The notes under the pieces: model-generated
Database searches by the model: none
The model's input: only the letters and a program-made list of their open reading frames with translations
What the model was told of the DNA's origin: nothing
Shown: positions 41,654-48,323 of the stretch, piece after piece
Layout of the letters: each line of letters begins with the position of its first letter
Position numbering within the stretch: the stretch's first letter is position 1
Translations under genes and position numbers: made by a program
Assembly (NCBI GenBank): GCA_963575745.1
Contig: CAUYUJ010000201.1
Location: forward strand, 1-64,000
DNA length: 64,000 nt
DNA from: Prorocentrum cordatum
Lineage: Eukaryota
Reading direction: 5' to 3'

Positions 41654-43549
41654 GCCGGGTACCTGTGCGCCGCCAAGCGCCGCGCCCTCGCGACCCAGGC
41701 AGCGCGGCCGTGCCCCCTGCCGGAATGGAGTGCCCGAACGCGGCCACAGATCTCCAACCCCCTTCGAAGAACAGCGCTGCTGGCCCCCCGGTGCGGAGTG
41801 CCTGCGTGCGAGAGACACGAACTGCGCGCGGGCCCTGGGTAGGCAGGGGGCGGCAAGGGGAGCCCATGCCTGGTCGGCCCGGCCGCGCCTGAAGCAATGC
41901 GCCCCCCACTCCAATGCCCTATGGAGCCCGAGGTGGGCAGCGGCGAGCTCGACGCAAGCCAGCCCGTCCACGTAAGAGACGCCCGGCAGGAGCTGCTCGC
42001 CGGGCCGGAGCGAATGCCGAATGATGCAGACCGCACACAATCGTTTGCCCTGGAGCTGGCATACGCATACCCTCCAGACCTCGCGATGCGGGGAGCCCGG
42101 GGCGCGCCCCGCCGCGCGCGCGCGCTCGGCCCGCCGGGTCGGGGGCCACTCCCCCCTTCCGCTGGCGGAATTGCACCTGCACCTGGTGCTTTCCTTCGTC
42201 TACGTGGAGCGAGACGGCACTATGCCCAGGCGCATTCAGCCCCACTACTTCGGAGCCGAAGCGCAAGCAGAACTGCCAGCATATGACGAAAGCGTCGGCC
42301 ACATCGCCGCGTCCGATCTGCCAAACGCCAGGCCCGCGGGCCGGCACGCACGGCAGGCCGCTTAGTTCGAAGAGCGCGCGGCCGCGCCTCGCGCAGCCAA
42401 TCCGACATCGCGCGCACGTTTTCGGCCGTGGCGCGCGCACGAAATCTTTGCGCACCAGGCGGTTCCGCCTGCCGCCGATATCATGGGCTCGCGGCCGACG
42501 CGCGCGGCGGCCGTACCTTTCGGGCACCGAATACCAGGGTCCGCGTGTCCGCCAAAGACCCTGTGTCTGCGCGGAGCAGATGCAGGACTGAGCGAATGCC
42601 CTGCAAATAATGCGACAGGGTCCCCGGGCGGCGACAGAGCGCCACCATCATGTCCCGCGCGATGGCGCACGGCGGCCAGGGCGGGACGCCTGCCGCATCG
42701 CACGCCTGGCCGTACAACTCCACCGCCGAGGCATACGGGCATGCCGAGAGCTTCCACGCGTGGAATTCTCGCCACAGCGCGGCCATCTGGATGCGGCGCA
42801 TGCACTCCAGTCCTGCTCCTGACACCCGCAATTCCTCGGCGCGCCGACGAGGTGTTCCTGGCACCCGCCGCACGCCGATGTCCTGCCTCGCGCGCACCTC
42901 CCGCGGAATGCCGCCTTCGCTTATGAATATCGCGGGCGGAGCCTGGAGTTTCGTCAGCTGGCGGATTGCCTCTGCCAGCATCGGCGGCGCTGGTACCTCC
43001 GCGCCGCGCGCGGTGCACGAGGACGGTGGCGCCGCGCGGCGGTGCCTGCCGTGCCTGCCTTGCCGCTGAGAGCAACGCGAGGGCGTCTTGAGGCGTCAAA
43101 CCCCCGCCGGGCCGGCGTTTCGCGCGCAAGCCCGGTGCCGGTGCCGGGCACTTGGCCGCTTTCTCGAGTAACGTTTCCGCCGCCTTCGCGCCCACGGGTC
43201 AGCGGGCAGCGGCCGGCCTTGCTTGCTCCGCCGGATGGGGCGGAGTTGCGCGCGCGCGCTCGACCTGGGAGAGCGATGCCGCTGCATCGTCCTCCCGGGG
43301 CCGCTTTGCATTTTCGTGGGTCAGCTTACGCGCGTGAGTAATAAGCGTCACGGTGAAGCACTCTGACCACTCCCGGAGGCACGGGAACACTTCCCTCGCC
43401 TCCTTCGCCGTGAATCCGGACAGGTCGGGGGGATACGCCGCTCCTTCGGCTGCGAGCATGGATGTCAGACACTGCAGAGCTTCCGCGCCTACCGGATGCG
43501 AATCATTTTCGGGCGTCCACCGCGACGCGTGTGACAAGCACGCAAGCAT
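41654..43549 (-). pseudogene. Element 2 tyrosine recombinase, intron-containing, catalytic Tyr apparently replaced by His
   Basis: Candidate introns: 43184-43264, 42997-43054, 42835-42897, 42469-42516, 42318-42387, 42080-42134 and 41802-41869. Spliced motifs: FCLRFGSE (R), RQRKG (K), CVC-x7-CAVC, GAHCFRRG (HxxR), DQ|ALRTGG...GGWRSVAAFGH (expected Y at 41730-41732 is CAC). Confidence 0.86.
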
Positions 43550-43642
43550 GGCGCCCGCGGGCCCCCTCTCGCGGCGGGCCTGGTCGTCACGCGCTCGCCG
43601 CGCAAGCCTTTGCGCCCCCTACAAATTGCCCTGTGCTACTTG

Positions 43643-46631: not shown

Positions 46632-46653
46632 GCACAGCGCCGGCGCCCTGGCT

Positions 46654-48323
46654 TCACCACCGCCAGGACTCCTTTCGCTCAGGCTTGCGCCACGAGCTCC
46701 CCGCGTCCTTGGGAGCCCCTCCCTTGCCGGCCTTTCCGCCCCCCTTCTTGCTGAAGGTATCGCGGCGGGGGCTGCGCGAGCGCTGGCGGAGGACAGGGCT
46801 CACCGGGGTCCGTGGCTTCGCCGCCTCGCGCGCCGCGACGCGTGCTCGCGCACGCGGGGCGCGCGCGCGCGGGCTCGCGCCTGGTCGCGCCGGTCGTTGC
46901 CGCCTTTCTTGCCCCCGCCCTTGGCGAACGCCGCCTGGCGGTCCGACTGCTGGACTCTCTCCAACAGCGCGCAGCGCGATGCACGATGCCAGGGCGGCGG
47001 CCACTCAAAAGCGCTGCGCTCCTTGGCGGCGCGCAGAATGTCCCACGACAACGCAGTGAACGAGGCCGTCGCATCCTCGTCGCCGTGTTCCAGGTCTTTC
47101 GCCACTTTCTGGCGGAGAAGCAAATCGTACGTGTAGGAAACCTGGACGCGGCGCGGGCACCCGCGCGCGGCTCCCTGGGCATCGGGCCCGCCGCTCCGCG
47201 GACGCGCCTTGACGCCCCCGTGCTCCTCGCTCACGCGCGCGAGCTGGTACATGTATCCCAATAGCACGACGGGATCAAACACTTTGGACAGGATGCAGCG
47301 AAGCCCCCACTCCTTTACGTGGGCCTCGCGCCACGGGGCGCGCGTGGGCGCGCGCGCTGCGCTGCGTCGCGCGCGACCTGGAAGTGCGCATAACCGAGAA
47401 AATCCATTCGGTCCAGGGCCGCACCCGCGCGGTTCGCCGCGGCGACGGCCGACGCGCGATCGCGCCACGAGCCCGCCCCCGCTGGCACCGAGTCCAGCTT
47501 CGGCATTCGCGCCCATTGGGGCTTGCAGTGGTCCTGCGCGCGGAGCAATCGGCGAAACGGAAGCTTGTCATTGCACGTGCCGCCGAGCAGGGAGCCTGCA
47601 GGCTCTCGCCCTCGGCGCTCCCACTGCATGAGCGGCCATGGGACTGGGCCGTCCGGCCCGCGGCCGCGAATTTGCGCATCGACTCCTCGGCAATCCCTCA
47701 CGGGGGAACTTGCCGAGCCAGACCTTGCGCACACGGTCCTGCCGAGGCGCGTATCCCCGAACAATGCCGCCCGCGCATGCGAAAACGCGGCGCGCCTCCA
47801 TGGCAAACGCCAGCGGCTTCTCCCGCTTTTCTTCGAGCAATTCCTTGCTGGCCTACACGTATTCTTCCATTGCCGCCGCAATCCGCGTCGTCTCCTCCGC
47901 GGGCTTGGCGGCCGCCTCCGCCGGGGCCGATTGCTGACCCTCCTGGCGGCGCGCCGCGCGGCGGCCCGCGCCCTCGCGCACCAACGGGGCGGGGGCCTTC
48001 CGCCCGAAGGCTTCCATCGCTCGCGACTGTGTCCGCAGCGCCATATTGATGTGGCACGGCTTAATCGCGAAATCGCGCCACTCCGCGGAAGAATCGCCCG
48101 CAAACGGCTTCGCGCCTGGCTTCAGGGCCGCAATCAACCTATCGCGCATGGCCGCATCCGAGTAATCAATCGGGCGGACCGCCCCGATCGCTTCGGCCAT
48201 CAGGCGCGCGACCGTGGTGCACAGCACCAGCTCGGGAGCTGGCGATGCGTCCCCCTCCGCCGCGTTGGCCGCTGCGACGAAGAGGACCCAATCGGCCTTG
48301 CGCGCCGCTGCGAGTGGGCTCAT
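46654..48323 (-). pseudogene. Element 2 gag-like ORF, intron-containing
   Basis: Candidate introns: 47943-47996, 47739-47795, 47534-47595, 47325-47377, 47142-47207 and 46825-46880. The spliced product reads ...SAEGESLQ|DHCKPQWAR...GYAHFQ|AHVKEWG...EEHGGVK|VSYTYDLLLRQ... Residual lesions are a TAG at 47853-47855 and a frameshift near 47687. The start codon is uncertain. Confidence 0.72.

Follow-up and report, generated by a model that had tools for sequence, protein, structure and literature searches.

By the textbook account, retroelements and retrogenes are free of introns because the RNA that is reverse transcribed has been spliced. [quoted passage not shown] DIRS1-like elements have inverted terminal repeats, an internal complementary region and, often, a methyltransferase after RT-RNase H. 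SymbioDIRS and other Symbiodinium DIRS-like elements are recombinase retroelements of a marine alga, with an RT too divergent for Pfam seed alignments and a host whose introns have non-canonical donors; the excerpted account reports them as intronless, in contrast to exon-rich host genes, and gives some of them a DNMT domain (PMC5890265). The subject of this analysis is an element on the minus strand of a 64,000-nt stretch of Prorocentrum cordatum DNA (contig CAUYUJ010000201.1, positions 1 to 64,000; the whole stretch is referred to as the window). The copy is dead, and the multi-copy retrotransposon family to which it belongs is Ngaro-like (DIRS-order), with the gene order gag, RT-RNase H and what is likely a tyrosine recombinase. 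The family shares with Ngaro elements the ORF order, the motifs of the likely recombinase and the richness in G+C, and with the Symbiodinium elements the divergence of its RT and the non-canonical donors of its setting, but its genes are interrupted by at least 26 predicted introns, and its likely recombinase is too divergent to be recognized as PF00589 by HMMER. These introns belong to the element itself.

The comparison with DIRS1-like elements came out negative. Inverted terminal repeats were not found in 41600-49700, the window copy being truncated at its 3' side so that the 3' terminus itself is out of sight; pol stops directly after RNase H, with no methyltransferase or DNMT domain seen. 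Tests for Penelope-like features turned up RNase H and a recombinase-like ORF3 instead, and no hammerhead or other Rfam family in the window.

The preliminary description of this locus proposed a retroelement with gag, RT-RNase H and tyrosine recombinase genes, an identification that is supported by what follows (with the recombinase graded as likely), and listed 25 inserts as candidate spliceosomal introns. All 25 are present on the minus strand with the borders assigned to them; they are 48-81 nt long, with a G+C content of 0.66-0.91. Their signals are also as first reported: the donors are GC (19), GT (5) and GA (1) and the acceptors AG (25/25), the exon base before the donor is always G (25/25) and is mostly preceded by A (22/25), and the first exon base past the acceptor is G in 23/25. 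The introns are mostly in phase 0 (20/25 with an assignable phase, counting in the 26th intron discussed below). The typical site separates a codon that ends in AG from one whose first base is G, as would fit insertion at, or selection for, proto-splice sites; AGG therefore flanks each intron on both sides. Insert lengths are spread over the three mod-3 classes as 8/9/8, which is the expectation for non-coding inserts; 17/25 are not multiples of three and three more contain an in-frame stop, which reproduces the earlier count of 20. G+C is 0.807 in introns versus 0.662 in exons. The donor mix fits the type described for Emiliania huxleyi, whose genome is 65% G+C, whose donors are GC (56-65%), GT (35-40%) and GA (~4%), and in which intron retention is pervasive, with reads across 89% of 535 inspected introns in the portion of the study used here (PMC4028052).

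When the 25 inserts are removed by script, three frames remain, which are gag, pol and a third ORF, and the conserved motifs that had been quoted as rebuilt across the junctions are all found in them. The spliced frames retain two stops and two frameshifts (near 47688 and 45480): gag has a TAG (47855-47853) and has lost 4 nt near 47686; pol has a TGA (45053-45051) and has lost 1 nt near 45482-45486. The count of about 25 introns was one short, the intron at 41663-41733 having been missed. Its excision places a tyrosine 8 residues after a conserved tryptophan and, in another copy of the element (L002, below), opens 55 more codons to a stop; without its removal ORF3 ends without the tyrosine.

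Other copies make the case that the inserts are carried by the family. A metagenome scan yielded four loci (L001-L004), of which L001 (2.2 kb) and L002 (5.1 kb) are other copies of the element at 85-90% DNA identity, and L003 and L004 are more distant. Where they cover the element, L001 and L002 have the same inserts with the same borders, all but one. In the 18 listed introns common to the window copy and L002, the L002 donors are all GC or GT and the acceptors are AG in 17/18; the solitary GA donor of the window copy, at 45414, is GT in both L001 and L002. Intron lengths vary from copy to copy (Table 1). The comparison with L002 covers 41651-46469 (4.8 kb), with 20 listed indel events: 15 in introns, one in a coding exon, two in the spacer between pol and ORF3, one absence of a whole intron and one end-of-alignment artefact. 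Among the informative indels, 15/18 thus lie in introns, and the sole coding-exon indel is the window copy's own 1-nt frameshift. Substitutions amount to 370/3,601 (10.3%) outside introns versus 191/1,099 (17.4%) inside (Fisher p 1e-9), and exon differences fall on codon positions 1, 2 and 3 at 7.1%, 5.3% and 18.4% (chi-square p 2e-28). The spliced frames have therefore been under purifying selection during divergence of the window and L002 lineages, while the introns drifted like silent sites. By their borders, their lengths modulo 3, the indel pattern and one exact absence, the inserts are predicted to be spliceosomal introns that would be removed in vivo.

The stretch is contained in 20 DNA runs from 14 studies; contigs of three of these (X4, X7 and X8) and of one presumed RNA run were compared. 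Run X4 gave 393 contigs (26, 51, 243 and 73 in the likeness classes 99%+, 95-99%, 90-95% and <90%) and X7 gave 3,370, so that many diverged copies exist within single runs. The listed X4, X7 and X8 contigs lack the defects of the window copy: 47855 is A>T, turning the stop into a sense codon, 45053 is A>C, a C is added at 45482, and in X4 and one X7 contig TCGG at 47686 fills the gag deletion. The copy in the window is thus a decayed member of a family with intact frames. At none of the four listed contig joints is an intron skipped; the contigs show presence of introns, not absence.

The same borders emerge from proteins. A word search with a 128-residue RT exon retrieved three near-identical database proteins (P0001-P0003), which are ORF calls reading straight through some of the inserts, and an exhaustive HMMER search with P0001 retrieved 575 relatives at E<=1e-3, many of them continuous ORFs of 450-900 residues. 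The expected domains were found in part: RVT_1 in relative P0029 (36.6 bits versus the Pfam cutoff of 29.6), RVT_3 above cutoff in P0040, and weaker RVT_1, RVT_3 and RT_RNaseH matches in others, with no HMMER match for the recombinase. Pfam searches of 13 single exons of the window gave only sub-threshold matches at chance level, and of two gag exons no family. In tblastn of 11 relatives against the window, the matching pieces end and resume at the predicted intron borders, and in an alignment (A1), where P0001 and P0002 read through, they carry insertions that 8/8 distant homologues lack. Conversely, the script-spliced pol aligns with eight continuous homologues over its whole length with no gaps at the junctions, and keeps the Asp-Asp motif of RT and the Asp/Glu/Asp columns of RNase H in register. 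Thus, apart from the read-through ORF calls, homologous proteins do not align through the inserts but skip them at the predicted borders. Locus L003 encodes pol (P0005) as a single uninterrupted 659-codon ORF (342-2318), followed by an ORF homologous to the N-terminus of ORF3 (2430-3164), and is thus an intronless relative; it comes from the same metagenome record series as the intron-bearing L001. Intron-free and intron-rich lineages may coexist. No related loci were found in prokaryote genomes or viral contigs.

One intron, at 45205-45276, varies. It is missing to the base in L001, L002 and seven database proteins (ENA, Logan and JGI contigs) and present in P0002 and P0003, both of which start inside a homologous copy of it. 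More distant ORF3 relatives vary further: P0154 (70% identity) is without 42997-43054 and 42835-42897 and has an insert at 42469-42516, where its frame ends, and P0175 (64% identity, on 8 contigs) is without 42835-42897 and 42318-42387 and has inserts at the places of 42469-42516, 42080-42134 and 41802-41869. The family comprises several sub-families at 64-94% identity. Segment 580-2955 of L004 belongs to a different family (G+C 0.69), in which pol is interrupted by ~10 inserts, 49-79 nt long and of the same AG|GC..AG|G pattern. Six of the ten lie within one alignment column of window introns, the variable 45205-45276 among them, against a rough chance estimate of ~0.5; four L004 inserts are at positions absent from the window family. 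In a FastTree tree of 72 rows the window element and L004 are mutual nearest rows (50% identity over 573 columns) and belong to a starred clade of 8 rows, in which the remaining six are continuous ORFs. As a lead only, the alignment being noisy, three clusters at 50% identity (P0018, P0023 and P0054) have Arg/Ala-rich insertions <=2 residues from window intron positions. Sharing of introns among the copies of a multi-copy family, which the preliminary description had proposed as a check, is thus observed, the different flanks of full copies not being seen directly. Since the introns are common to diverged copies and, in part, to a sister family of about 50% identity, they have been carried through many transposition rounds. 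The simplest reading, in which the order of events is inferred, is that the stem shared by the window family and L004 acquired introns, that lineage-specific gains and losses followed, and that the 72-nt intron was then exactly lost in the L001/L002 lineage.

ORF3 is likely, but not proven, to be a tyrosine recombinase. Arg, His-x-x-Arg, Trp and Tyr in that order constitute the tyrosine recombinase pattern; the ORF3 sequence has them in this order once intron 26 is removed, Arg in exon 42135-42317 and His-x-x-Arg in exon 41870-42079. In the ESM Atlas, residues 140-325 of P0175 have feature scores of 0.96, 0.96 and 0.95 to PF00589 clusters (23/30 matches in that set; a score of 0.95 is reached by about one shuffled protein in 100), structure TM by query of P0175 to tyrosine recombinase clusters is 0.53-0.67, and the N-terminal part of P0154 gives weak leads to Phage_int_SAM_1 (0.82). 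Several results speak against this assignment: HMMER against Pfam, PHROGs and NCBIfam gave no match for P0153, P0154, P0173, P0174, P0175 or the exons; phmmer of two exons and P0175 against PDB sequences gave none; and AlphaFold2 models have low confidence (pLDDT 47.8 for P0175 and 53.0 for a 106-residue N-domain exon), with no Foldseek match in PDB at E<=0.001. A tblastn search of P0175 against phages gave five chance matches under repressor genes.

What does this anatomy say about how the family propagates? It is rather probable that the family is copied from unspliced RNA while spliced mRNA yields its proteins, the introns being inherited with the element. The full-length transcript would have two fates: spliced molecules would serve as mRNA for Gag, Pol and recombinase, while unspliced molecules would be the template for reverse transcription, as in retroviruses, and the recombinase would insert the DNA copy. 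Occasional copying of partly spliced RNA would generate exact intron deletions, which the copies without intron 45205-45276 fit, and a host with pervasive intron retention would supply such templates. A further-reaching proposal, plausible and put forward tentatively, is that a clade of recombinase retrotransposons has turned gene-like, with dozens of introns at AG|G borders, and is transmitted by copying unspliced RNA only, for example through a packaging or priming signal in an intron. Such an element would resemble a host gene to any surveillance of intronless transcripts, and its intronless sisters would be either ancestral or 'processed' escapees from fully spliced RNA.

Three mechanisms had originally been offered: copying of an unspliced or antisense template, movement as DNA, and intronization of one insertion in place; the first two stand and the third is dealt with below. 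Multiplication at the DNA level, through recombinase-mediated excision and reintegration of circles as in Cryptons, or through tandem or segmental amplification, would keep introns with no need of reverse transcription, and is the competitor to be taken most seriously, although we consider it unlikely. The arrangement at the end of L002 (3' end, 361 nt, then 5' start; see below) fits a head-to-tail tandem or circle junction as well as it fits split direct repeats; two blocks of 971-976 nt with 94% identity enclose the window copy, as homologous insertion of a circle would give; and Cryptons do provide, in the available part of their description, a precedent of recombinase-only DNA transposons with introns (PMC13465315). 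Set against these points, purifying selection acts on the exons of RT and RNase H just as on those of the recombinase, and RT therefore matters for propagation; base-exact absence of an intron is most simply made via spliced RNA; and Glomhopper Cryptons share no intron positions among copies, as far as the excerpted account goes (PMC13465315), whereas nearly all are shared here.

That the loci are host genes, derived from an old retroelement, fitted with ordinary host introns and later duplicated, so that there would be no live transposon family, is improbable to a marked degree. Intron-rich, selected frames do resemble host genes, and intronized Glomhopper-type copies have been interpreted in this way in the part of the report used here (PMC13465315), but the three ORFs have stayed together, in the order of a retroelement and with a 5' region, a single run holds hundreds of diverged contigs, several sub-families exist at 64-94% identity, and dead, truncated copies such as that of the window are typical of a transposon family. 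More improbable again is the notion that the inserts are not spliceosomal, and are either removed from DNA at AGG borders, like the eliminated sequences of ciliates, or never removed in a dead family. It draws on the AG|G on both sides of the inserts, which amounts to a 3-nt direct repeat flanking each, on the insert missing in DNA copies, and on the lack of RNA evidence; it is opposed by the proportions of G[C/T/A]..AG borders, which match the published spliceosomal introns of a GC-rich host in the excerpted E. huxleyi data (PMC4028052), by the four contig joints, none of which skips an insert, and by the third-position bias, which shows that the spliced frames were translated while the copies diverged. 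Intronization in place of a single dead insertion has nothing in its favor other than that the window copy is dead, and is excluded by the same inserts and borders in L001 and L002 (all but one), by the several inserts seen in read-through proteins and by the recurrence of six positions in L004.

Copying from unspliced RNA, with the introns as components of the element, has its own points to answer, which concern transcripts, comparators and ancestry. None of the 20 runs that contain the stretch is recorded as RNA, nor does an RNA run containing it appear among the 24 listed, and the one presumed RNA run (X21) gave 0 contigs. The six gag introns are without a comparator sequence, and three of them (47943-47996, 47739-47795 and 47142-47207), being stop-free multiples of three identified through signals and G+C content, could be read through. 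The 72-nt skip of L001 and L002 is not among the listed contig joints, the listed contigs not bridging that place; both L001 and L002 stop within the element, and with the window copy truncated too, differing flanks of full copies are not directly seen. The database proteins derive from ORF calling, which favors intronless relatives; the tree leaves the branching order within the 8-row clade open; and the positions common to the window element and L004 could partly be parallel gains at AG|G sites.

Origin of the introns as copies of one mobile family (introners) was considered and rejected: similarity among the introns is confined to (GC)n runs of 12-29 nt, they have no copies elsewhere in the window, which was the only sequence searched, and their folding is unremarkable (mean z -0.42 versus -0.36 for exon pieces).

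The limits of the element, first placed at 48323-41654, have been corrected to 49672-41651 on the basis of the L002 match and the edge of a repeat block. The flanking repeat block R2 ends at 49672, the position at which 40 nt matching the far end of L002 set in; at 41651, L002 and contigs of runs X4 and X8 diverge from the window sequence, and ORF3 of the window copy is broken off there, 8 nt past its Tyr codon. Past the 3' end, L002 continues with 361 nt lacking in the window and then with 40 nt equal to window 49672-49633, at which the contig stops; the same 361-nt letters form the loose end of the main X4 contig. Intact members would repeat their 5' start behind the 3' segment, as the A1-[ORFs]-B1A2B2 layout of Ngaro elements would give in the part of the description at hand (PMC8547959), and as head-to-tail copies would as well (B2 is unseen). 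The 5' non-coding region contains tandem arrays, of ~38-nt units around GCAGGCATACTGCGC at 48527-49086 and of four 69-nt units at 49175-49462, for which promoter, packaging signal or repeat A are candidate roles.

Two direct repeats of 971-976 nt, 94% identical to each other, enclose the window copy exactly (40683-41653 and 49673-50648). These blocks are satellite-like, with (CAA)n, (CGA)n and an array of the 21-nt unit GGGGCCACGAAGGGCAGCGAC, and there is a partial third block at 51379-51955; related blocks occur elsewhere in the window without the element. Candidate readings of the arrangement are array periodicity, homologous insertion of a circle, or that the blocks are part of the window copy. 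The 21-nt satellite (41164-41653 and 50345-50911) is hugely abundant in the runs, summed word depth in bin 41600-41830 reaching 12,078 in X4 and 21,401 in X7 versus ~80-400 over the rest of the element. A repeat of ~0.8-1 kb around the element has at least five copies at 83-92% identity (39791-40612, 37624-38605, 53853-54680, 56090-56866 and 56858-57637). The 64-kb window holds no second related element that could be found, no tRNA genes or Rfam families at gathering score, and no dinoflagellate spliced-leader relic (weak evidence). Pfam searches of 16 long and 150 further ORFs outside the element found no host gene and no clathrin, the 150 giving one sub-cutoff TFIIA match and otherwise none at E<=1e-4; motifs of the clathrin heavy chain were not found in the window either.

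Table 1. Coordinates of the element, its ORFs and its predicted introns in the window (donor..acceptor dinucleotides are given for the window copy; 3n, length a multiple of three)
Feature	Positions	Strand	Remarks
Window copy of the element	41651..49672	minus	dead, 3'-truncated, 8,022 nt; 5' and 3' ends from L002, run contigs and repeat block R2
5' non-coding region with tandem repeats	48324..49672	minus	run contigs extend past 48500
gag-like ORF1	46654..48323	minus	7 exons, ATG 48323, TGA 46656-46654; gag label from position alone
pol ORF2 (RT-RNase H)	43643..46631	minus	13 exons, candidate ATG 46631 (or 46218), TAG 43645-43643; homologues, spliced-frame alignment
ORF3 (likely tyrosine recombinase)	41651..43549	minus	9 exons, ATG 43549, Tyr codon 41661-41659; motif order, ESM Atlas
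Intron 1 (gag)	47943..47996	minus	54 nt, GC..AG; signals and G+C (0.91) only; 3n, no in-frame stop; no comparator
Intron 2 (gag)	47739..47795	minus	57 nt, GC..AG; signals only; 3n, no in-frame stop; no comparator
Intron 3 (gag)	47534..47595	minus	62 nt, GC..AG; non-3n; no comparator
Intron 4 (gag)	47325..47377	minus	53 nt, GT..AG; non-3n; no comparator
Intron 5 (gag)	47142..47207	minus	66 nt, GC..AG; signals only; 3n, no in-frame stop
Intron 6 (gag)	46825..46880	minus	56 nt, GC..AG; non-3n; no comparator
Intron 7 (pol N-terminal region)	46412..46466	minus	55 nt, GC..AG; non-3n; equal length in L002; upstream of most homologue cover, support weak
Intron 8 (pol)	46270..46318	minus	49 nt, GC..AG; non-3n; 63 nt in L002, flanking exons indel-free
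Intron 9 (pol)	45971..46026	minus	56 nt, GC..AG; non-3n; absent from continuous homologues; L004 insert in same column
Intron 10 (pol)	45823..45877	minus	55 nt, GT..AG; non-3n and in-frame stop; not in continuous homologues; L004 has its insert 7 columns upstream
Intron 11 (pol)	45534..45594	minus	61 nt, GC..AG; non-3n; 65 nt in L001/L002; junction in variable alignment stretch
Intron 12 (pol)	45345..45414	minus	70 nt, GA..AG; non-3n; 63 nt, GT..AG in L001/L002; 21-residue read-through in P0001; absent from 8 distant homologues
Intron 13 (pol)	45205..45276	minus	72 nt, GC..AG; present or absent by copy; L004 insert in same column
Intron 14 (pol)	44905..44957	minus	53 nt, GC..AG; non-3n; 51 nt in L001/L002; 10 proteins read through it as 17 residues; absent from homologues; L004 insert in same column
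Intron 15 (pol)	44467..44519	minus	53 nt, GC..AG; non-3n; 55 nt in L002; absent from homologues
Intron 16 (pol, RNase H)	44210..44273	minus	64 nt, GC..AG; non-3n; absent from homologues; L004 insert in same column
Intron 17 (pol, RNase H)	44057..44112	minus	56 nt, GC..AG; non-3n; 54 nt in L001/L002; absent from homologues; L004 insert in same column
Intron 18 (pol, RNase H)	43904..43960	minus	57 nt, GC..AG; in-frame stop; absent from homologues; L004 insert in same column
Intron 19 (ORF3)	43184..43264	minus	81 nt, GT..AG; in-frame stop; 77 nt in L002
Intron 20 (ORF3)	42997..43054	minus	58 nt, GC..AG; non-3n; no insert there in 70%-identical P0154
Intron 21 (ORF3)	42835..42897	minus	63 nt, GT..AG; 65 nt in L002 with acceptor AA; P0154 and P0175 continuous there without insert
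Intron 22 (ORF3)	42469..42516	minus	48 nt, GT..AG; in-frame stop; 49 nt in L002; 18-residue read-through in P0175
Intron 23 (ORF3)	42318..42387	minus	70 nt, GC..AG; non-3n; 54 nt in L002; no insert in P0175
Intron 24 (ORF3)	42080..42134	minus	55 nt, GC..AG; non-3n; 21-residue read-through in P0175
Intron 25 (ORF3)	41802..41869	minus	68 nt, GC..AG; non-3n; 58 nt in L002
Intron 26 (ORF3)	41663..41733	minus	71 nt, GC..AG then G; non-3n; 70 nt in L002 with identical borders

Judged by its sequence, the new feature of this element would be its intron load in all three genes (~4 per kb), conditional on transcript evidence. If the reading given here is true, large-scale separation of template RNA and mRNA is within the reach of a retrotransposon, and introns can be gained and spread by a retroelement, the gains and losses of one copy propagating genome-wide. 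The family would also constitute a natural system for asking whether introns shield mobile elements from silencing of intronless transcripts, at which HUSH silencing is reportedly aimed. ORF-based annotation of transposons would overlook such families or break them up; the proteins retrieved from databases here are fragments of the read-through kind. A literature search, with subscription journals and Repbase outside its scope, found no description of an intron-rich recombinase retroelement or of a retrotransposon with such an intron load.

Three known systems remain for comparison. Penelope-like elements are retroelements known to retain introns through retrotransposition, and are called highly unusual on that account; they differ in having an RT of another (telomerase-like) clade, a GIY-YIG nuclease or none, and in lacking both RNase H and a recombinase, and their introns, in the portion of the work available here, are one or few and mostly in the 5' untranslated region, versus ~4 per kb in the coding sequence of the window element (PMC8557442). 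Cryptons, including the Glomhopper CryptonA elements, are likewise mobile elements that encode a recombinase, in genes with 1 to ~20 predicted introns, but they are DNA transposons without RT, their intron positions are not shared among copies, and their intronized copies are read, in the excerpted report, as decaying or domesticated (PMC13465315). Retroviruses and those long terminal repeat elements that export unspliced RNA, such as Cer1 (PMC10309623), offer a parallel to the proposed mode of propagation, in that one transcript is spliced for some products and serves unspliced as template; their Gag and Pol are translated from unspliced RNA, a single intron being used for env or accessory genes, whereas the element of the window would need ~26 splices for the expression of all three of its genes.

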